This document shows, one piece after another, positions 2 to 56,309 of a DNA stretch of 64,000 bases. The stretch comes from Bacillota bacterium (GTDB lineage: Bacteria > Bacillota > Clostridia > TANB77 > CAG-465): assembly GCA_023410645.1 (NCBI GenBank), contig JAEYPQ010000023.1:3168-67167 (forward strand), written 5' to 3'. Each line of letters starts with the position of its first letter. Positions within the stretch are counted from its first letter, which is position 1. The position numbers were made by a program, and so were the translations under genes. The notes below the pieces were generated by a model, which was given only the letters and a program-made list of their open reading frames with translations, had not been told where the DNA came from and made no database searches.

Positions 2-1702
2 GCTATACAATCAAATCAAAATGATCAACATGGTGGTCAAAGTATACCAAACTTTGAGTATGCAATGGCAATAGGTGTAAGAAAAACATACAAAAAAGAA
101 CATCTTAAAAATTTAACAAAAGCTATTGAGTTATTAACTGATAGAGAAGATGCAACTAAATATGCAAAATCTATAGTACAAGAAATTAAATATGAAAAGG
201 ATTTAGTAGCAACTTTAGAAGATTCTAATGGATATTTAAAAGAAGAAAAGAAATATCTATCAAAAGATTTTGATGAAAAAACAGTAAATAAAATACAAGA
301 ATTTGTTAAAAAATATACTGAAAAAGAAGTTGAAAAAGCAACTTACCAAGCAATGGAAGGCTTTATACATAATTTAAATACTATGCATTCAAGAGCAGGC
401 GCTCAAGTTCCATTTAGTAGTATAAACTATGGACTTGATACCACTCCAGAAGGTAGACTTGTTATGAAACAATTACTTCTTACAACTGAAGCAGGACTTG
501 GTAATGGTGAAACACCAATATTCCCTATACAAATATTAAAAATAAAAGATGGAATTAACTATAATGAGGGTGAACCAAACTATGATATATTTAAGCTTGC
601 TTGCAGAGTATCTGCAAAAAGATTATTTCCAAACTTTTCATTTATAGATGCACCATTTAATTTACAATATTATAGACCAGGTGATTACAACACTGAAGTA
701 TCATATATGGGATGCAGAACTAGGGTTATGGCAAATGTATATGATAGAACAAGAGAAGTAACTGCTGGTAGAGGTAATTTAAGTTTTACTTCAATAAATC
801 TACCAAGACTTGGAATTTTGGCAAATGGTGACATAGACGAATTCTTTAAAATGTTAGATGAAAAAATGGATTTAGTAGTTGACCAATTACTTCATAGATT
901 AGAGATTCAATCTAGTAAAAAAGTTAGAAATTATCCATTCTTAATGGGTCAAGGCGTATGGCTTGATTCAGAAAAATTAAGTATAGATGATGAAGTAAGA
1001 GAAATATTAAAACATGGTACATTAACAGTTGGATTTATAGGTCTTGCAGAAACTTTGAAATCTCTAATAGGCGTTCATCATGGTGAAAGTGAAGAGGCAC
1101 AAAAATTAGGTCTTAGAATAATTGGATATATGAGAGACAGAATGGATAAAGAATCAGAAAATAGAGGACTTAATTTCTCACTTATTGCTACACCTGCTGA
1201 AGGACTTTCTGGAAGATTCGTTAAAATGGATAGAAAAAGATTTGGTAAAATTGAAGGCGTAACAGATAGAGATTATTATACAAATTCATTCCATGTACCT
1301 GTATATTATAAAATTAATGCATTTGATAAAATAAAAAGAGAGGCTCCATATCATGAGTTAACTAATGGCGGTCATATAAGTTATGTTGAATTAGATGGAG
1401 ATCCTACAAAAAACTTAGAAGCATTTGAACAAATAATTAGATGCATGAAAGAATCAGGAATAGGATATGGATCTGTAAACCATCCAGTAGATAGAGATCC
1501 AATTTGTGGATACACTGGTGTTATTGAAGATGTTTGCCCACAATGTGGAAGACGTGAACATGAAGATAATAAAGGTGGATTTGAAAGAATAAGAAGGATA
1601 ACTGGATACTTAGTTGGAACTGTTGATAGATTTAACAATGGAAAAAGAGCAGAAGAACATGATAGGGTGAAACATTTCGTAACAGAATGTGATTGTGATT
1701 AA
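2..1702 (+). CDS. nrdD: Anaerobic (class III) ribonucleoside-triphosphate reductase NrdD, 5'-truncated by the window edge. The reading frame is open from base 2, upstream of the first ATG at 65.
   Basis: Long ORF. The C-terminus carries the Zn-ribbon CPQC...CDCD flanking the glycyl-radical motif RRITGYLVG, and the product resembles NrdD throughout. nrdG follows. Confidence 0.9.
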   Translation, partial: AIQSNQNDQHGGQSIPNFEYAMAIGVRKTYKKEHLKNLTKAIELLTDREDATKYAKSIVQEIKYEKDLVATLEDSNGYLKEEKKYLSKDFDEKTVNKIQEFVKKYTEKEVEKATYQAMEGFIHNLNTMHSRAGAQVPFSSINYGLDTTPEGRLVMKQLLLTTEAGLGNGETPIFPIQILKIKDGINYNEGEPNYDIFKLACRVSAKRLFPNFSFIDAPFNLQYYRPGDYNTEVSYMGCRTRVMANVYDRTREVTAGRGNLSFTSINLPRLGILANGDIDEFFKMLDEKMDLVVDQLLHRLEIQSSKKVRNYPFLMGQGVWLDSEKLSIDDEVREILKHGTLTVGFIGLAETLKSLIGVHHGESEEAQKLGLRIIGYMRDRMDKESENRGLNFSLIATPAEGLSGRFVKMDRKRFGKIEGVTDRDYYTNSFHVPVYYKINAFDKIKREAPYHELTNGGHISYVELDGDPTKNLEAFEQIIRCMKESGIGYGSVNHPVDRDPICGYTGVIEDVCPQCGRREHEDNKGGFERIRRITGYLVGTVDRFNNGKRAEEHDRVKHFVTECDCD

Positions 1703-1747
1703 GTAATAGTTGTAGTATTTATCATAGTATTAAGAGGGGGAATTATT

Positions 1748-2032
1748 ATGAAAATAAACGTTATAGGTGGGGAAATGAATCAAAAGGAAATTGATGCATA
1801 TGTAAAGCACATTAATGCAGAATATCCTGATAAGACAGTAAGTACTTTAGATATAAAAATTGATGGTGAATATGTCGATATTAATTATACATTTGAAACT
1901 GTACCTTTTGAGAGAATAAGAAGAATAACTGGATATCTAGTTGGAACTGTTGATAGATTTAACAATGGAAAAAGAGCAGAAGAACGTGATAGAGTAAAAC
2001 ATTCATTAGAATGTAGTTGTGCTGAGTTTTAG
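1748..2032 (+). CDS. Small (94 aa) autonomous glycyl-radical-domain protein. Its C-terminal 40 aa duplicate the NrdD glycyl-radical tail, so it may act as a GrcA/YfiD-like spare part for NrdD.
   Basis: Strong RBS AAGAGGGGG lies 7 nt before the ATG. nt 1903-1996 are about 90% identical to nt 1579-1672, the nrdD 3' end. The protein retains FERIRRITGYLVGTVDRFNNGKRAEE(R/H)DRVKH. It sits between nrdD and nrdG, and its stop overlaps the nrdG RBS. Confidence 0.6.
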   Translation: MKINVIGGEMNQKEIDAYVKHINAEYPDKTVSTLDIKIDGEYVDINYTFETVPFERIRRITGYLVGTVDRFNNGKRAEERDRVKHSLECSCAEF

Positions 2033-2045
2033 GAGATGTATTTAA

Positions 2046-2555
2046 TTGGAAGAGACTATAAGAATTGCTGGTGTTGTAAAAGAATCTATTGTTGATGGGC
2101 CAGGTATAAGATATGTTATTTTTACCCAAGGTTGCCCACATAAATGTGAAGGTTGTCATAATCCGCAAACTCATGATTTTAATGGTGGAAAAATAGTTAA
2201 TATTTCTAAATTATTAGATGATATTAAAAAGAATCCATTAATAAAAGGAATTACAGTAAGTGGTGGAGAACCATTTGCACAAGCAAGTAATGTTGCTAAA
2301 TTAATATATAGTTTAGACAAAAATAGGTATAATATAATGGTTTATACTGGATATACATACGAAAATTTAATTAAAAATTCAACAGATAAAAATGGATTTT
2401 TAAAATTACTTAATCTAACAGATATATTAATTGATGGTAAATTTGAGATAACTTTAAAAGATAGTTTTATTCCATTTAGAGGTAGTTCTAATCAGCGCGC
2501 AATCGATGTAAAAGAAAGTTTAAAATCAAATGAGGTTATATTATATAACTTCTAG
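2046..2555 (+). CDS. nrdG: Anaerobic ribonucleotide reductase activating enzyme (radical SAM)
   Basis: GCPHKCEGCHN provides the CxxxCxxC radical-SAM cluster. The size (169 aa) fits, and the gene lies downstream of nrdD. It has a TTG start with AGGAG 10 nt upstream. Confidence 0.85.
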   Translation: MEETIRIAGVVKESIVDGPGIRYVIFTQGCPHKCEGCHNPQTHDFNGGKIVNISKLLDDIKKNPLIKGITVSGGEPFAQASNVAKLIYSLDKNRYNIMVYTGYTYENLIKNSTDKNGFLKLLNLTDILIDGKFEITLKDSFIPFRGSSNQRAIDVKESLKSNEVILYNF

Positions 2556-2570
2556 AATATGAGGTAATTT

Positions 2571-3020
2571 ATGCATTGTATTAAGTGTGGATACGAAGAA
2601 AGTAAGGTAGTAGATTCAAGATCTATTGAAGAAGGAAATTCAATTAGAAGGAGAAGAGAGTGTTTAAATTGCAAAAATAGATTTACAACTTACGAGAAAA
2701 TAGAATATACACCTATTATGGTAATAAAGAAAAATGGCATGAGAGAGCAATTTGATAGAAATAAAATAATAAATGGAATGCTTAGAGCATGTGAAAAAAG
2801 ACCTGTTTCTATTGAGGCAATTGAAAAATCAGTAGATGAAATTGAAATGGAAATAAATAATTCAATGGCAAAAGAAATTGAAGCAACTAAAATAGGTGAA
2901 CTTGTAATTGATAAAATAAAAGCTTTAGATGAAATTGCATATGTAAGATTTGCATCTGTATATAGACAGTTTAAAGATATAAATGAATTTAAAAAAGAGT
3001 TAAATAAACTATTAAAATAA
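2571..3020 (+). CDS. nrdR: Transcriptional repressor NrdR (zinc ribbon plus ATP-cone)
   Basis: The N-terminus [17 protein letters not shown]...[12 protein letters not shown] is a Zn ribbon. ATP-cone-like residues follow. The protein is 149 aa. Confidence 0.9.
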
Positions 3021-3026
3021 ATGAGA

Positions 3027-3056
3027 AGACTGTTGATAATTTGGTATCAACAGTCT
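3027..3056. terminator. Bidirectional intrinsic terminator between nrdR (+) and the Crp-family gene (-)
   Basis: Inverted repeat AGACTGTTGATA-atttgg-TATCAACAGTCT. Confidence 0.6.
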
Positions 3057-3741
3057 ATTCTATGTATCTAATTAACTCTTTTAAATTTATTATCTTAAAA
3101 TATGATTTATTATAATCAATAATTTTTTCATCACGCATTCTTGATAGTTCTCTTGACATTGAAGGTCTTGAAACGTTTAAAAAGTTCGCTAAATCTTCTC
3201 TGTTAAATGGTATGGTAAATATATCACTCTTTACATTTGTATACGAATTATATATGAATGTGGATAATTTACATCTCATACTTTTTATAGATATATAATC
3301 AATTTTTTGATTTAATATACTGGCTTTAGTTGCAAGCTCAAAAATCATATTCTGTAAAATAACATTTTCTTTATTTGAAAAATGAGTATTCAAATGCAAT
3401 AAAGAATCAATAGATATAAACATTACTTTGACATTACTTAATGAAGTTGCAGTAATATTTTTATTAAATCTAGTAGATAATGCTATTACTTCTCCAAATA
3501 TATCTCCTTTGCCAAATATAGAAATTGTAGTTTTATTTCCAGATATACTTGTTTTTGCAATTTCTACTTTACCATCTAGTATTAATCCTATTTTTTCCAA
3601 TATATCATTTGGATATATTATTATATTTGATGTTGAATAATCAATTATCTCAATGTCTAATTCTTTTAAAGTTTCTAATATGTCATTTTCATTTAATGAC
3701 TTAAATAAATAGAATTTTTTTAATGTATCTATATAATTATT
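3055..3741 (-). CDS. Crp/Fnr-family transcriptional regulator (cNMP-binding domain plus C-terminal HTH). No N-terminal Cys cluster is present, so it is CRP-like rather than FNR-like.
   Basis: The C-terminal HTH reads REDLANFLNVSRPSMSRELSRM. The frame stays open 120-150 nt upstream of the TTG used by the ORF track, and that stretch encodes a typical cNMP-domain beginning (YIDTLKKFYLFKSLNENDILETL...). There is no ATG, GTG or TTG between the upstream in-frame stop and the track's TTG. The true start is therefore uncertain. Confidence 0.7.
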   Translation of the reverse strand, partial: NNYIDTLKKFYLFKSLNENDILETLKELDIEIIDYSTSNIIIYPNDILEKIGLILDGKVEIAKTSISGNKTTISIFGKGDIFGEVIALSTRFNKNITATSLSNVKVMFISIDSLLHLNTHFSNKENVILQNMIFELATKASILNQKIDYISIKSMRCKLSTFIYNSYTNVKSDIFTIPFNREDLANFLNVSRPSMSRELSRMRDEKIIDYNKSYFKIINLKELIRYIE

Positions 3742-3828
3742 TATATAATCACCTCATTTTGTAGCCATAGCTACTGAAATTTTAGTTAAATTATACTATA
3801 ATTAGTTATATAAATCAAGGAGGAAGAA

Positions 3829-4530
3829 ATGAAAAGAAAAATAATAAAAGTAATTGAAGAGAAATGTAATGGTTGTGGTTTATGCATAAATGCATGTCAT
3901 GAAGGTGCGTTACAATTAATAGATGGAAAAGCAAAGTTAGTAAGTGATACATATTGTGATGGATTAGGAGCTTGTTTACCTAATTGTCCTGTTGGAGCAC
4001 TAGAAATAATAGAGAGAGAAGCAGATGATTTTGATGAAATATCTGTTAATAAAAATATGAATTTAAATATGCATTTTAGTGGATGTCCTTCAACAAGAAT
4101 GAGGATGAATGTTAAAAACAATACAGATAATAATATTAATTACAAAAAAAAATTAAATGATAATATAGGATCAGAATTAAAACAATGGCCATGTCAAATA
4201 AGATTGGTTCCATATAACGCGCCATTTTTAAATAATTGTAATTTGTTAATTGCAGCTGATTGTACTGCTTTTGCATATCCAAATATACAAGAAGTAATGA
4301 AAGATAAAATCACACTTATTGGTTGCCCAAAATTGGATGATGTAGATTATACTAATAAGTTAACTGAAATCTTAAAATATAATAAAATTAACAGTGTAAC
4401 TGTAATACGTATGGAAGTTCCATGTTGTGGAGGTATAGCTTCTGCAGTTATAAGAGCTATAAAAGGCGCAAGCATTAATATGGACCTAAATGTAATAACA
4501 ATATCAGTAGGGGGTAATGTTATAGAATAA
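3829..4530 (+). CDS. 4Fe-4S dicluster (ferredoxin-type) domain protein
   Basis: Two ferredoxin motifs, CNGCGLCINAC and CDGLGACLPNCP, plus extra C-terminal Cys pairs. The RBS is AAGGAGGA. Confidence 0.7.
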   Translation: MKRKIIKVIEEKCNGCGLCINACHEGALQLIDGKAKLVSDTYCDGLGACLPNCPVGALEIIEREADDFDEISVNKNMNLNMHFSGCPSTRMRMNVKNNTDNNINYKKKLNDNIGSELKQWPCQIRLVPYNAPFLNNCNLLIAADCTAFAYPNIQEVMKDKITLIGCPKLDDVDYTNKLTEILKYNKINSVTVIRMEVPCCGGIASAVIRAIKGASINMDLNVITISVGGNVIE

Positions 4531-4725: not shown

Positions 4726-7700
4726 ATGGATAAAAAATACAAATTAAGTTTTCCACAAGAAAATATATTATTGGTTGAAAAGTTAAATACTAGATCATCT
4801 GTAAATACTATAACAGGTACAATAAAAATTGATGATATATTTAACGAAGAATACTGTAAACTTGCAATAAATAAACTTCTTAAAAATAATGAATTATTAA
4901 GAATAAAAATTGTAGATGAAGTAAATGACTCATATCAAATAATTCAAGATTTTGAATATCAGGAAGTTGAGGTTTTAGATTTACAAAATTATTCAATTGA
5001 ACAAATAAATGAGACTTTATCTAAAATTGGAACTCAATCAATTAATTTAGAAAGTAAATTATTAATTGAGCCTAAGATTTTAAAATATTCAGATAATTGT
5101 GGCGCAATAGTTATAAAGATACATCATATCATAGCTGATGCATGGAGTCTTTATGAAATAGCAACAAAATTAAGGGAGTACTATATTGATGCTTTAAATA
5201 AAATCGAATCACGTGATAATTTCTCAGAAAGTTATTTTGATTATATAGAATCTGAGAAGGAATATTGTAATTCTGAAAAATATGAGAATGATAAAATGTT
5301 TTGGAATGAATATCTGAATAATATTGGTAATCCAGTAAATATAAAAGATAAATCGATAAAAACTTCTAATAAAGCAAAGAGATTTTCTGCATCATTAGAT
5401 TCTGAATTAAATGGATGTATAAATAATTATTGTAAGTCCAACGGAGTTTCAGTATATTCATTGTTTTTAGCTGCGATTTCAACATATATATATAGAGTTA
5501 GAAATGAAAAAGATATTATACTTGGTACACCATTACTTAACAGATCTAATTTTAAAGAAAAGAATATGTTAGGTATGTTTATATCTACTTTACCTATTAG
5601 AATTAAAATAGATGAAAATATGAAATTTATGGAACTAGTAAAAATGGTATCTAGTAATACTAAATCTATATTTAAACATCAAAAATATCCATATTATAAA
5701 ATATTGGAAAATATACACAGTACTACCAATATAAAAGATAATTTATTTGATATAGTTTTATCATTTCAAAATGGAAAAGTTAAATATCAGGATCAAAATT
5801 TCAACATAGATTGGTTGTTCTCTGGAGATATTCAAAATAGTTTAGAAATACATATATTAGATCCACAAAGTACAGGAATATTAAAAATTAATTATGATTA
5901 TTTGGTGGACTTATTTAGTGAAGTTGATATTATGTATTTACATAGAAGAATAATTAGTATAATAAAAACTGCAATAAACGATGAAAATTATAATTTAAAT
6001 GATATTAATATATTGGATAATTTAGAAGAAAAAATGATATATAGTATTAATGAAAATAATATAGATTATCCATCTGATAAGAGTATAGTACAATTATTTG
6101 AAGAACAAGTTGCAAAGAACCCTAATAATATAGCGCTTAAATTTCAAAATACTAGCATGACTTATTATGAATTAAATAAAGAATCAAATAAATTGGCAAA
6201 TTTTTTAAAGAATAAAATGGGAATATCAAGAAATGATGTTGTATCTATAATTATTAATAGAGGCTTTAATATGATAATAAGTATTCTTGGAATATTAAAG
6301 GCTGGAGCATCATATTTGCCGATAGAACCAACATTTCCAAAGGATAGAATAGATTACATTATTAAAGATAGTAATACTAAAATTATAATATGTTCTGATA
6401 ATGTAAAATTAGACTATAATAATATACCAAAAATAAACATAGATAATTATGAGTTTAGGAATACTGAAGACAATAATATTAATATTGTTAATGATATAGA
6501 AGACTCAATATATATAATGTATACTTCTGGAACAACTGGAAAACCCAAAGGTGTGTTAATAACTCACAAAAATATAACTAATCTAATATTTTCAGTTATA
6601 AATCATCAAAACTTATATGAATGTAATGTATGGGGAAATTTTTCAACATATTCTTTTGATATATTTATTTTAGAGGCTATAGTTCCACTTGCAATTGGAA
6701 AACAAGTTGTAATTTTAGATGAAACGGAACAAAAGACCCCAAAGAATATGAAAGAATGTATTATAAAAAATCAAATTGATGTTATGAATATGACACCAAC
6801 GAAATTTAAACTTTTACTTGAATATGATAAGGAAAATAATGCATTAATTGGATTAAAGAGATTGATGCTTGGAGGGGAAGTATTTCCAACTAATTATTAT
6901 GATAAAATAAGAAAAAGAACTAATGCAATTATTTATAATGGATATGGACCAACTGAGACTACAGTGTGGTGTACTTCAAAGATATTAAAAGATCCTAATG
7001 ATATAAATATAGGGGTACCGCTTCCAAATATAAAAGCATATATATTAGATGATAAAAATAAAATCTTACCACTTGGAATAACTGGTGAGTTATGTATTGG
7101 TGGAGATGGTGTCGGTAAAGGATATCATAATCGAGAAGAACTTACAAATCAAAGATTTATTGATACTGAATATGGAAAATTGTACAGAACTGGTGATTTG
7201 TGTTATTTGAATTACAACTGTGACATTAATTATGTGGGAAGAAAAGATTCACAAGTAAAAATACATGGATTAAGAATAGAGATTGAAGAAATAGAAAATG
7301 TAATTAAGTCTTTTGATGGTATAAGCCAAGTAGCTGTTATTGTAAATGAAAATCAAAACTTATGTGTATATTTTACTTCAACCCAAGAAATTATAATTGA
7401 AGATTTAAAATCATACTTGAAGTCTAAATTACCTAATTATATGGTTCCAACTATGTATATGAAAATTGATAAATTTTATATTACTGATATAGGAAAATTG
7501 GATAAAAAAAGATTACCAAAATTTGAATTGAATATTGATTACAATAAATACATAAAACCTGAAACAAAAACAGAATTAATATTGGAAAAAAACTTAAAGG
7601 AAATATTAAAAGTAGATAAGATAAGTATTGATAAAGATTTAATTGAATTAGGACTTGATTCTCTAGGAACTATAAAATTAATATCCCTACTAAATAATAT

Positions 7701-10700
7701 GGGAATTGATATTACTTATCAAGATATTTTCAATAATTCTACTATTCATAGAATTGGTAAATTAATTGATGAAAATAAAAAAGTAAGTCATATAACCAAA
7801 GCTATTGAAAATAAGATTAATGCTCCTATTACTCCTGCTCAAAAGGGAATATTCATAAATTCATCAATGACTGAAAATAAAATGCTATATAATGTTCCTT
7901 TTGAAATAAAGTTTTCAAATAAAATTGATATAGAAAAATTGAAAAAGTCAATAGAGTCAGCTATATTAAAAAATAAGTCATTATTTACAAAATTTAAAAT
8001 TGAAAATGATGAAATACATCAATACTTAGACTATGATAAAAATTATAGGGTTGTCGAGCATAATGTAACTTATGATGAGTATTTACATACAAAAAATATA
8101 TATGATAAGAGTTTTGAAATATTAGAAGACAGATTATTTGATTTTAATATATATACTACTGAAAGAGCTATATATGCAATAGCAAATTTCCATCATATAA
8201 TATTTGATGGTACATCAATATACATTTTTTTAAATGACATCATAAATAGTTATAATGGATCTAAAATCAATGTAGATAAATGTGAATTAATCGAGGATTT
8301 AAATACAGAGGTTAGTGAAATTAAATATAATACTGCAAAAAAATACTTTCTTGATGAATTTAGTGACGAATTACCAGTTAATTCATTACCACTTGATATG
8401 CCAAGATCAAAATTTAGATCGTTTAATGGTGATAAAGTTAAATTAATTGTTGATGAGGATATTGTTGAAAAATTAAATATTTATTCTAGAAATAATAAAG
8501 TAACTATGAATAGTATATTTTTATCATTATTTAATTTTACATTATCAAAGTACATGTATAATGAAGATATAATAATAGGAATTGCAGCAGATTCAAGGAG
8601 TTCAAAAAGACAGTTTAATTCTACGGGGATGTATGTATCAACTTTACCTTTTAGAACAAAAATAAATTTTGAAGATAAATGTTTAGAATATATAAAAAGT
8701 ATTCAGAATAAATTAATATCCACTTTAGATAATATTTCATATAGTTATGATGACCTTATAAAGGAACTAAATATACCAAGGGACTCTGCAAGAAATCCAT
8801 TGTTTGATGTAATGTTTGTGTATCAAAATTCTGGAATACCAGAAGTTACCTTAGAAAATGAAACTGTTGAAATATCACCAATTTATTATAATACTTCAAA
8901 ATTTGATTTAACTTGCGAAATACTTCCTAATGATAATATAATTGAAATAAATATTGAATATTGTAGAGATTTATTTTTTAGAGAAACAATAGAAAGATTT
9001 TGTGAAAATTACTTAAACTCAATTAGATGTATAATAAATAATGAAAAATTATTATTAGAAGATATAGATATTATTTCTGATTATGAAAAAAATAAAATCT
9101 TAAACGAGTTCAATAATTCTAGTGTAAAGTATGATGATAAACTAAATATAGTAGAGATATTTGAAAACCAGGTAAAGATAAATCCAAACTCTATTGCAGT
9201 AGTATCTGAGAATAATAGTTTAACTTATACTGAACTTAATGAAAAATCAAATATTGTAGCGCATAATTTAATAAAAAATGGTGTTAAAAAAGGTGACATG
9301 ATTTGCATAATGGTAGATAAATCATTAGAGGTAATGGTAGGAATACTTGGAATACTAAAAGCTGGAGCTGTGTATGTACCAATTGAAATTGATTGTCCAC
9401 CATCAAGAATTAAATATATAATTGAGGATACAAAATCAAAATATATATTAACATCTAATAAAAATAAAATTGATTCTAGTCAATGTACATTAATAGATAT
9501 AACAATAGATAAAAGTGAAATATTTAAGGATGGCAATAAGCATAATTTAGCAATAAGCATAAATTCTAACGATAATGCATATGTCATGTATACTTCTGGT
9601 ACAACAGGTAAGCCAAAAGGCGTAATTATTACTCATAAGAATGTAGTTAGTTTAATTCAAAATACCAATTACATAAAATTAGAAAAAGATGACAGAATAC
9701 TTCAAACAGGATCTTTAGCTTTTGATGCAACTACATTTGAATATTACTCTGCACTATTTAATTCACTACCTCTTTACTTTATGAAGAAATCCAATTTACT
9801 TGATTTAGAGAAATTTGAAGATTTTGTTATTAAGAATAAAATTACTGTAATATTTTTAACTACTCAATTATTTAATCAGATAGTAGAGTATAATCCTTTA
9901 GTATTTTCAAATGTTAGAGTTATACTTACTGGTGGTGAAATACATTCAATAAAACATTTAAATGTTGTTCTTCAAAAATGCAAAAATTTAAATTTAAGTA
10001 ATGTATATGGACCTACTGAAAACACTACGTTTTCTACTTATTATCCTATAAAAGATAAAGTGAATAAAAATGTACCAATTGGTAAACCAATTGCTAATAA
10101 AACATGTTATATTGTTGATAAATGTAATAAGCTATGTCCAATAAATGTACCAGGTGAATTAGTAGTTGGCGGCGATGGTGTTGCAAATGGATATTTAAAC
10201 AAGCCAGAAGTCACAAAGGATAAATTTATTAAAAATATATTCTCTAATGACGGTAATATATTATATAGGACAGGAGATTTATCTAGGTATTATAGTGATG
10301 GAAATATAGATTTTATTGGAAGAATTGACACACAAATAAAGATTAGAGGATTTAGAATAGAACCTGATGAAATTAGCCATAAAATGTTAGAAAATAAAAA
10401 TATAAAAGATGCAGTTATAATTTTAGAAAAAATAAAAAATAATAAAGTATTAGTTGCATATTACACTTCAGATGAAATTATTGAAGAAGAGTATTTATCT
10501 AAAGAATTAAAAAAATATTTTAATAATTATATGATACCATCTTATTTTATAAAAGTAGATAAGATTCCTATGAATTCCAATGGTAAAGTAAATAAAAGTG
10601 AATTAAATATTATTTTTAAAAAATATTTAATAAAAAGAAATAAATCTAAGAAAAATACTAGTTTATCAGGTATATACTTGGATATATATAAACTTTTCAA

Positions 10701-53916: not shown

Positions 53917-56309
53917 GTTTAACTTTAACAAGAGTTGTATTTAAATTATTTTTGGGTTATATGTCTTTCCAAAATTTGATAGTTTAACTTTAACAAGAGT
54001 TGTATTTAAATTTCTAAGAATTTCTTTAATTCTTTTTCTTCTACACTGTTTAACTTTAACAAGAGTTGTATTTAAATGTTTCTTTGTTGAACATTAGCAT
54101 TTTAGGTTCTTCGTTTAACTTTAACAAGAGTTGTATTTAAATTACATTTCTTCTGTAATCATAATACCACTCCTTATTGTTTAACTTTAACAAGAGTTGT
54201 ATTTAAATAAGAATACAAGAGGCAGGAGGAAATTATATCGAAAGTTTAACTTTAACAAGAGTTGTATTTAAATTATGGAATTATCTAAACGTTTAACACA
54301 GTTAAGAGGTTTAACTTTAACAAGAGTTGTATTTAAATCGTAGCAGTAAATGAACTTATAGATGGTTATGAAGCGTTTAACTTTAACAAGAGTTGTATTT
54401 AAATATAAATAAAACTAAGCAAGCTGTTAAAAGACATATGTTTAACTTTAACAAGAGTTGTATTTAAATTTTGATTGTCTGTTTGACCATCTATGTACTC
54501 TATGTTTAACTTTAACAAGAGTTGTATTTAAATTTTTTTAATTTTTCAATTATTTTATTTCTATTTAAGTTTAACTTTAACAAGAGTTGTATTTAAATAG
54601 TAATTGAAATAGCTAAAAGAGAAAAGAAAGCAGAGTTTAACTTTAACAAGAGTTGTATTTAAATCAAAGAAGAAAAAATGAATTTATGTGGAAGTATGAG
54701 TTTAACTTTAACAAGAGTTGTATTTAAATTTGCTTTACCTGGAGCTTTATCTTGTGTATCAATTCCGTTTAACTTTAACAAGAGTTGTATTTAAATAATA
54801 TTTATGAGAATTGAAACAACTTATACATTTGGTTTAACTTTAACAAGAGTTGTATTTAAATAGCTCAGAAAGATATATGGTTGATATGCACATGATAGTT
54901 TAACTTTAACAAGAGTTGTATTTAAATCGATAAGAGATTTGACACAATTCCTTTTAACGAAGGTTTAACTTTAACAAGAGTTGTATTTAAATGTTTAATA
55001 AATAAGGAGTGGTATTATGATTACAGAAGTTTAACTTTAACAAGAGTTGTATTTAAATACTGGAAGAACGATGGAAGATGTAATGGAACGTATACGGTTT
55101 AACTTTAACAAGAGTTGTATTTAAATGTATTCAAGCCCTGATTATGGAGGTGTTAGTTATATGTTTAACTTTAACAAGAGTTGTATTTAAATTTTTGTAG
55201 TTTATTAACTCAAAAAAATTTTTAATAGTTTAACTTTAACAAGAGTTGTATTTAAATCCTCAATTCTTAACTATTGTAAGTTGGCAATAGTTAGTTTAAC
55301 TTTAACAAGAGTTGTATTTAAATATTATATTATTTTCTTGAGATTTATCCTTTGCTTTAGTTTAACTTTAACAAGAGTTGTATTTAAATTTATTACCTGA
55401 TGTTGGTGTACTATTCATACTATGTTTAACTTTAACAAGAGTTGTATTTAAATCTAGATTTATAATTGAGTCTATGATTTATATATTTAGTTTAACTTTA
55501 ACAAGAGTTGTATTTAAATATATTAAAAATAGAGTTAATCATTTTTACTTTTTTGTTTAACTTTAACAAGAGTTGTATTTAAATTGCGTATTCCATTTAA
55601 ATATTAATGTTCCATTTGGTTTAACTTTAACAAGAGTTGTATTTAAATTCAGGTTCAATTCCAACTCCTAAACTTAAATTACTGTTTAACTTTAACAAGA
55701 GTTGTATTTAAATAGTGCATTTGTTTGTTCATTTAATTTTCCTAAAGTAGTTTAACTTTAACAAGAGTTGTATTTAAATCCTAATTAATATTATACATTA
55801 ATTATTGTAAAAAAAGTTTAACTTTAACAAGAGTTGTATTTAAATAGATTTATGATGTTAATAAAGACCTCATTTGGTTCAGTTTAACTTTAACAAGAGT
55901 TGTATTTAAATCTTTCAGAAGATATAATTTGTTTTAATCTATTTGCTGTTTAACTTTAACAAGAGTTGTATTTAAATAGATAAAATGTTTCCTTATATCT
56001 TTTTAACTGTAATGTTTAACTTTAACAAGAGTTGTATTTAAATTTTAGCATGTGAAAGTGGGCTATTACAACATAGTTTAGTTTAACTTTAACAAGAGTT
56101 GTATTTAAATATTATATAAAATAGAAGACGATCTAGTAAATGGTATAGTTTAACTTTAACAAGAGTTGTATTTAAATTCGGAATATATATTATGACCACT
56201 TATGCTATCTACGTTTAACTTTAACAAAAGTTGTATTTAAATCCCATTTTTTTGCTATTATTTTTTGTTCTTTTTCAGAGTTTAACTTTACATAGGATGT
56301 TCTTAATTT
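53917..56309 (+). CRISPR. CRISPR array of about 37 repeats (36 spacers). The repeat is GTTTAACTTTAACAAGAGTTGTATTTAAAT (30 nt) and spacers are 34-38 nt. It is type I-B-like. The leader lies at the 53.7-53.9 kb end, and the repeats nearest the cas genes are degenerate.
   Basis: Identical 30-nt repeats recur every 65-67 nt. The penultimate repeat carries a G-to-A change (56213-56242). The last repeat is strongly degenerate (56280-56309). Confidence 0.97.

Follow-up and report, generated by a model that had tools for sequence, protein, structure and literature searches.

A 64,000-nt stretch of a Bacillota genome (contig JAEYPQ010000023.1, class Clostridia; here called the window) carries an open reading frame (ORF) of 94 codons at positions 1748 to 2032, between nrdD, which encodes the class III ribonucleotide reductase (RNR), and nrdG, which encodes its activase. 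We refer to the product of this ORF as the mini-protein, and our analysis indicates that it is probably a stand-alone glycyl-radical subunit of class III RNR. As far as sequence comparison can tell, the small protein most likely supplies the loop that carries the radical glycine (Gly loop) in trans to NrdDs of many Clostridia and phages that have no such loop of their own. On balance, we also favor the broader proposal that many Clostridia and phages use a two-component class III RNR with a separate 6- to 11-kDa subunit charged by NrdG and that the mini-protein of the window would be the first spare part for a glycyl radical enzyme (GRE) other than pyruvate formate-lyase (PFL). O2 cleaves GREs irreversibly at their radical glycine, and the only remedy known to us is GrcA/YfiD, which serves PFL.

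A sequence-only reading of the window had described the 94-aa ORF between nrdD and nrdG, noted that it ends in a copy of the NrdD glycyl-radical tail, and likened it to GrcA. Each of these points was borne out. The ORF begins with ATG, and its flanking genes were identified (Table 1). Its tail and the 3' end of nrdD form a direct repeat of 97 nt with 93% identity; the coordinates given earlier (1579 to 1672 and 1903 to 1996) were about 3 nt out of register. The tail peptide of both copies reads FERIRRITGYLVGTVDRFNNGKRAEE(H/R)DRVKH, with one residue of difference, and the codon of the radical glycine lies at 1604 to 1606 in nrdD and at 1931 to 1933 in the mini-protein gene, where it specifies Gly62. 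The NrdD loop of the window aligns with residues 707 to 738 of the PcNrdD chain, Gly711 among them. When scanned against Pfam, the mini-protein matched NRDD alone, at aa 54 to 85 only, and had no match to Gly_radical (PF01228). In the NrdD-family models (PF13597/TIGR02487), it matched only the last ~32 profile positions and hence lacks the barrel, the Cys loop, and the substrate motifs; its scores of 30 to 44 bits were far under the equivalog cutoffs of 326 to 764. It does have the NrdD-type C-terminal loop, RxxGY, followed by a helix. The N-terminal part is unrelated to NrdD, as had been claimed: profile-profile comparison (hhalign) aligned the tail only, and homology of this N-domain to the C-terminal half of NrdD was rejected. 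The earlier interpretation, in which the final C-x-C was a retained Cys pair from the Zn ribbon, was not supported, as the Zn site is upstream of the Gly loop (PMC11226230). Moreover, the terminal Cys residues vary or are missing both in the mini-protein family and in NrdD, and many members end ...VKHGI or ...VKHAL.

Homology searches with the 94-aa protein, which the sequence-only reading had recommended, revealed a conserved full-length family that is specific to class III RNR and is neither an artifact nor a decaying copy. A search of 5.8 billion proteins returned at least 8,000 candidates; the best 120, which were inspected, were all 86 to 109 aa long and 64 to 91% identical to the mini-protein over 90 to 100% of the query, the N-domain included. 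Among 1.84 billion representatives at 50% identity, a profile search found 1,592 clusters that reached an E value of ≤1e-10, and the best 150 of these were nearly all 52 to 236 aa long. In 71 aligned members, the radical Gly62 and 26 other residues were invariant, among them F54 to T67 (which includes Gly62), R70, F71, N72, K75, E78, D81, R82, and H85, giving the tail pattern FERIRRITGYLVGT..RFN..K..E..DR..H. The tail had a ratio of nonsynonymous to synonymous substitution rates (dN/dS) of 0.12, and the N-domain had one of 0.45 (84 pairs with a dS of 0.1 to 1). AlphaFold2 predicted a beta-alpha-beta-beta fold for the N-domain (confidence [pLDDT] of ~81 to 86 for aa 1 to 50) and a tail that is disordered on its own. 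Foldseek comparison of the N-domain with the PDB gave nothing significant (best E value of 0.08, with generic beta-alpha-beta-beta matches). We propose that the N-domain is a docking or recognition domain. Databases currently give members of the family the name "anaerobic ribonucleoside-triphosphate reductase" or list them as "hypothetical protein," no dedicated NCBIfam or PHROG model was found for them, and no in-frame fusion of NrdD, N-domain, and tail was present among 519 fetched proteins. In some members (P0239 [535 aa], P0127, P0178, P0196, and P0257), the N-domain and Gly tail form the C-terminal end of a much longer protein with an unannotated N-terminal region and a distinct acidic tail (...VKHEVPQQNFEDVYVDN...); these may be mobile-element proteins.

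Our principal finding is about the NrdDs with which the family is associated. Where a mini-protein gene lies beside nrdD, the NrdD lacked RRITGY in 21 of 23 loci, including all 17 phage loci; an intact tail was seen only in the window and in L008, a Bacillota metagenome-assembled genome (MAG) that is 90% identical. In the abundant gut species of L001-3, for example, the adjacent NrdD is 827 aa long and ends ...CGRKEHESDIKCSERLKRFVTHGECASLESFE. The frames of such Gly-less NrdDs stop at or just short of the position of the glycine (...ERLKRFVTH.., ...ERILRIRR-stop, ...EKVRRIK-stop), and in the 17 phage loci the nrdD stop codon overlaps the mini-protein start codon. The shortened ends take many independent forms, among them ...ERVRRISCSTC, ...ERILRIRR, ...ERIKRITCGC, and ...ERIPRLKA, or are replaced by an extension of ~40 aa. 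When two Gly-less C-terminal halves were each compared with their best 120 homologues, the motif was missing in 39 of 120 and in 28 of 79 scored sequences. We then used unbiased samples, in which NrdD loci were drawn regardless of the mini-protein from metagenomes and from phage contigs. In metagenomes, a small Gly ORF was found downstream of none of the 53 NrdDs that had the glycine and of 15 of the 23 that did not (Fisher P = 1.7e-10); for phage contigs, the corresponding counts were 0/56 and 10/13. When both samples were pooled, a small Gly ORF followed 0 of 109 Gly-positive NrdDs, versus 25 of 36 Gly-less ones.

Apart from the missing loop, Gly-less NrdDs look, from their sequences, like functional enzymes and not like pseudogenes. 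Alignment of the L001 NrdD to PcNrdD (8P23; residue numbering as in PMC11226230) showed that it retains HxHD, the NxN flap, Cys171, MGC416RTRV, RGN435, E581, and the Cys residues of the Zn ribbon. Catalytic motifs of the C-terminal half were invariant across 32 aligned NrdDs, ~12 of which are Gly-less. Pairs of Gly-less NrdDs had dN/dS values of 0.04 to 0.12, indicating strong purifying selection, and NrdG was always retained beside them. Since natural NrdDs without a Gly loop keep NrdG, supply of the loop in trans very probably works, and Gly-less NrdDs are evidently served by the mini-protein. O2 cleavage of NrdD falls at the glycyl radical (PMC3019208), and as the Gly-less NrdDs end at approximately the scission position, they can be regarded as genetic mimics of the O2-damaged enzyme. 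These NrdDs also bear on the suggestion that the mini-protein is a regulator or decoy, which would compete with NrdD for NrdG or fill the barrel of NrdD, would thereby buffer, store, or restrict radical formation, and would not support catalysis. The exact NrdG recognition sequence in the mini-protein, the predicted disorder of its isolated tail, and the regulators that adjoin it in many loci would all suit a decoy. However, this suggestion leaves unexplained why Gly-less NrdDs with all of their catalytic residues and an adjacent activase are under strong purifying selection and why the small ORF is found downstream of Gly-less NrdDs and only those; we consider it very improbable. Separately, one Gly-less nrdD, seen in two independent samples (L088, positions 7056 to 9320, and L089), contains an in-frame TAA (...EDIVK-stop-IKYDKD...) that divides NrdD into products of 273 aa and 439 aa; this could be a further split, a pseudogene, or a case of read-through.

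The split and fused forms of the enzyme interconvert among close relatives. Phage loci L129 (split) and L273 (fused) have closely aligning nucleotide flanks and are one insertion of ~186 nt apart. In L129, this cassette lies between ...CGR(N/T)E and PFERIRRITGY. It contributes HITITEKVRRIK followed by a stop, a Shine-Dalgarno sequence (AGGAGG) that falls within the codons for VRRIK, a start codon (ATG), and the N-domain. The two loci have matching tails, the clade-specific C-terminal extension ...VNQD(L/F)GNN(A/S) included. Because L129 and L273 are interconverted in this way, the cis and trans versions of the loop are apparently functionally equivalent in nature. The last nrdD codons of L129 (positions ~5960 to 6005; V-R-R-I-K, GTC AGG AGG ATT AAG TAA TG) hold the Shine-Dalgarno sequence of the mini-protein gene, so the apparent "ERIRRI relic" at this site doubles as a ribosome-binding site. 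A second type of small subunit is shorter (55 to 75 aa), has no N-domain, and reads ...GEGVGFERIRRITGY.... Its partners are NrdDs with the replacement C-terminal extension of ~40 aa (L090 [positions 29 to 1685], L187, L190, L198, L213, L217, L234, and L236), some of which have a degenerate TIGYHGD in the extension. L226 represents an intermediate that is still fused and has its insertion at this point too, and the short type looks like the product of an independent gene fission. The short subunit of 56 aa falls into one 90%-identity cluster with proteins of 452 to 477 aa called "putative nucleotidyltransferase with HDIG domain"; such co-clustering may reflect gene-call fusions or a clustering artifact.

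The sequence-only reading had taken the similarity of the two window tails as a sign of recent intragenic duplication, a claim that our comparisons do not support. Synonymous divergence (pS) over the 32-codon tails was 0.30 between the NrdD and the mini-protein of the window and 0.40 between those of L008, only slightly under the values for cross-genome paralogues (0.44 to 0.46) and orthologues (0.49 to 0.55); recent duplication and gene conversion were rejected. The tail of the window mini-protein is nearer to that of another species, L001 (pS of 0.15), than to that of its own NrdD, and the family is old and widespread. The GC content at third codon positions was 0.03 to 0.16, and given an invariant peptide and such extreme AT codon bias, no recent event is needed to account for nucleotide identity of ~90%. 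Our data also dispose of the view that the ORF is a functionless partial duplicate of the nrdD 3' end, decaying or neutral, or an assembly artifact. High nucleotide identity between the window copies speaks for such a view, but codon bias accounts for that identity, the exact protein recurs on independent contigs, and thousands of homologues are conserved at full length with the unrelated N-domain. Furthermore, the radical glycine is invariant and the mini-protein is under purifying selection. We regard this view as already refuted by the conservation data.

We envision the following mechanism. The C-terminal ~35 residues of the mini-protein correspond to the NrdD Gly loop and the helix that follows it. 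NrdG would take an H atom from Gly62 by use of S-adenosylmethionine, and the charged loop would then enter the NrdD barrel in trans, beside the Cys that forms the thiyl radical, and start catalysis just as a covalently attached loop does. The N-domain of ~50 residues would dock on NrdD or NrdG and so stand in for the missing covalent link. In the solved NrdD of this kind, PcNrdD, the glycyl radical domain is reported to be very mobile and to move out of the barrel (PMC11226230), which makes exchange of the loop plausible. NrdD has lost its own loop in most relatives and many phages; there, the mini-protein would be the sole radical carrier, and O2 would ruin a replaceable cartridge of ~10 kDa and not an enzyme of 80 to 90 kDa. 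In the window organism, the NrdD loop is intact and the mini-protein is consequently a second, exchangeable copy. There, O2 would cleave NrdD at the glycyl radical, leaving a truncated enzyme that resembles the natural tail-less NrdDs, and a freshly activated mini-protein would restore it in the manner of GrcA.

The spare-part role assigned to the mini-protein by the sequence-only reading thus survives in part. It does not hold as the sole role, for in most nrdD-adjacent loci the mini-protein is the apparent only carrier of the glycine. Its apparently obligate status in these loci and its common occurrence on phage contigs had not been foreseen. The window does not itself have a Gly-less, split NrdD, although it shares the other feature of split RNRs, a small Gly-loop ORF beside nrdD and nrdG. 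Its rare dual state, an intact NrdD tail together with a mini-protein, is best read as a GrcA-like spare part. A competing account holds that this organism routinely uses the mini-protein to carry the radical, with the locus in transition to a split enzyme, the NrdD tail redundant, and no special role in repair. As the molecular mechanism is the same, this account differs from the spare-part reading in physiology only. In its favor, 21 of 23 nrdD-adjacent loci are already split, the mini-protein is constitutively cotranscribed with nrdD and nrdG in one operon, and close relatives switch between split and fused forms. A redundant tail should decay, however, as it has in L001, whereas the NrdD tails of the window and L008 fit the family consensus perfectly and are one residue from the mini-protein, which argues that they are still under selection. 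We consider the routine-carrier account unlikely.

Several observations weigh against a two-component enzyme or limit how far the proposal can be taken. Eleven of the 36 Gly-less NrdDs in the unbiased samples had no small Gly ORF downstream; 8 metagenome loci lacked a Gly motif throughout the surrounding 3 kb, and 3 phage loci had none within 1.8 kb downstream. In the 8 metagenome loci and in L252 (a Ruminococcus sp. MAG), nrdG directly follows the Gly-less nrdD with no Gly motif nearby, meaning that the activase has been kept without a substrate in cis. These NrdDs are the expected partners of free-standing mini-proteins, a link that applies at the genus level only. The Gly-less NrdDs annotated as Ruminococcus sp. 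belong to the same genus as free-standing mini-proteins, and of two Ruminococcus NrdDs traced to assemblies, neither was among the listed mini-protein loci; co-occurrence is therefore supported for the genus and not within a single genome. Genomes with a Gly-less NrdD could also contain a class II RNR or another NrdD that is intact. Selection constrains the N-domain only moderately, no PDB fold matches it significantly, and the role assigned to it is a guess. That NrdG activates the mini-protein and that the loop works in trans are steps that we infer; for an NrdG-installed radical, the support is the adjacency of nrdG and the identical recognition sequence. Finally, with the NrdD loop of the window intact, a repair role and a primary-carrier role are indistinguishable at this locus.

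No description of a split NrdD or of a spare part for NrdD was found in the full-text literature searched, with most subscription journals lying outside that search. Whether GREs other than PFL have spare parts was left open both in a 2021 paper (PMC8683613) and in a 2026 review of GREs (PMC13450708). The Escherichia coli protein GrcA/YfiD and the phage T4 protein Y06I (vs.6) are, like the mini-protein, small stand-alone carriers of the C-terminal Gly-radical segment of a parent GRE. All are presumably charged by the activase of the parent enzyme, both kinds are encoded by cells as well as by phages, and both have links to O2 stress and to regulation of the Fnr type. Like GrcA, the window mini-protein is present alongside an intact parent enzyme. 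The parents differ (NrdD versus PFL), and the mini-protein lacks a PF01228 match. The architecture is also reversed: the mini-protein has a folded N-domain and a Gly tail predicted to be disordered, whereas YfiD has a disordered N terminus and a folded glycyl radical domain (PMC13450708). Moreover, the parent of the mini-protein has lost its Gly loop in most lineages, so that the small protein would be obligatory, a situation unreported for PFL. One-piece class III RNRs (NrdDs of T4, T. maritima, and P. copri) have the same Gly loop, RITGYLVGT..R(F/W)N..K.AE..DRV.H, and the same adjacency to the activase gene in one operon. In contrast with these enzymes, the Gly loop and helix described here are on a separate polypeptide of 55 to 110 aa, and NrdD keeps only the barrel and the Zn ribbon. 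A different precedent is the class I RNR of Aeromonas phage Aeh1, which has its genes in pieces, nrdA being split by insertion of a homing endonuclease gene. As here, an insertion in a phage divides the catalytic subunit of an RNR into two polypeptides that are still functional. Unlike the present case, the Aeh1 split is inside the class I barrel and arose through a mobile endonuclease gene. The cassette described here encodes only a stop, a Shine-Dalgarno sequence, a start, and a small domain, and what has been detached is the very module that serves as radical cofactor.

The radical loop of an essential DNA-precursor enzyme of strict anaerobes has apparently been transferred repeatedly to a small protein of its own, both in Clostridia that are abundant in gut and rumen (Ruminococcus, Oscillospiraceae, and Butyricicoccus-like organisms) and in their phages. 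If our interpretation is correct, it would answer the question raised about GRE spare parts (PMC13450708), in a directly testable system of three small genes. It would also provide a natural experiment on substrate recognition by the activase and on entry of the glycyl radical domain into the barrel and its exit, and it would suggest how gut anaerobes survive transient oxygen. Annotation of the 55- to 110-aa proteins would be corrected, and so would that of Gly-less NrdDs, which otherwise score as complete enzymes.

A scan of one genome per species yielded at least 80 mini-protein loci, from Ruminococcus (including R. flavefaciens FD-1 and ATCC 19208), Oscillospiraceae, Christensenellales, Lachnospiraceae, Erysipelotrichaceae, and others. 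Conservation of synteny, which the sequence-only reading had proposed as a check, was partial: among the loci listed, the order nrdD, mini-protein gene, nrdG was kept in the window, L008, and L001-3 only, and the remaining mini-protein genes were free-standing. For the free-standing genes, the most frequent neighbor family was the Crp/Fnr-type regulators, with a divergent regulator gene upstream in at least 12 loci. A rubrerythrin gene was immediately downstream on the same strand in at least 8 loci, those of R. flavefaciens FD-1 and ATCC 19208 among them. Other downstream genes were one for a flavodiiron protein, in L004-6, and metK, in at least 7 loci. Rubrerythrin and flavodiiron proteins are O2 and peroxide defenses of anaerobes. 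IMG/VR contigs contributed at least 80 further mini-protein loci (L092 to L171), with neighbors that are genuine phage DNA-metabolism genes (MazG, exonuclease, helicase, dCMP deaminase, and single-strand annealing protein). The order nrdD, mini-protein gene, nrdG was seen in 17 of the 80 IMG/VR loci listed, and 63 of the 80 had no nrdD or nrdG within 6 kb of the mini-protein gene. By analogy with T4 Y06I and PFL, this suggests that phages with the mini-protein alone may supply just the radical cartridge to the NrdD of the host.

In the window, a single terminator-like hairpin was found between positions 1500 and 3900 (Table 1), which indicates that nrdD, the mini-protein gene, nrdG, and nrdR form one operon. 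The start of nrdD lies upstream of the window; the full-length protein, known from L334, has 779 aa and an ATP-cone. The sequence GAGGGGG is 7 nt 5' of the ATG of the mini-protein gene, and the AGGAG of nrdG (positions 2031 to 2035) overlaps the stop codon of that gene.

Table 1. Features of the nrdD-nrdG region of the window (positions count from the first nucleotide of the window)
Feature	Position	Strand	Evidence or remark
nrdD, 3' 566 codons	2..1702	+	Pfam NRDD, E = 5e-173; NCBIfam PRK07111, E = 4e-264
Glycyl-radical loop of NrdD and next helix (FERIRRITGY...VKH)	1580..1676	+	Repeat copy 1
Shine-Dalgarno sequence of mini-protein gene, AAGAGGGGG	1733..1741	+	Read from sequence
Mini-protein, candidate stand-alone glycyl-radical protein, 94 aa	1748..2032	+	ORF with ATG start; homologues
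N-terminal beta-alpha-beta-beta domain, aa 1 to 52	1748..1903	+	AlphaFold2 pLDDT; no NrdD similarity
Glycyl-radical loop of mini-protein and helix	1907..2003	+	Repeat copy 2
nrdG activase, TTG start	2046..2555	+	TIGR02491, E = 1.4e-43
nrdR repressor	2571..3020	+	Pfam Zn_ribbon_NrdR and ATP-cone
Bidirectional terminator-like hairpin closing the operon	3027..3056	.	Sole terminator-like site in 1500 to 3900
Crp/Fnr-family regulator, convergent with the operon	3055..3600	-	Pfam cNMP_binding and HTH_Crp_2

Two further features of the window were noted. From about position 4726 onwards, the window corresponds to positions 8979 to 12285 of L334, where there is a large nonribosomal peptide synthetase gene (Condensation, AMP-binding, PP-binding, and Epimerase domains) with a product of more than 2,400 aa; this gene begins ~200 nt past a gene for a 4Fe-4S protein at 3829 to 4530. 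A CRISPR array on the minus strand at 53917 to 56242 consists of 36 repeats of 30 nt with a spacing of ~65 to 66 nt (Rfam CRISPR-DR3).

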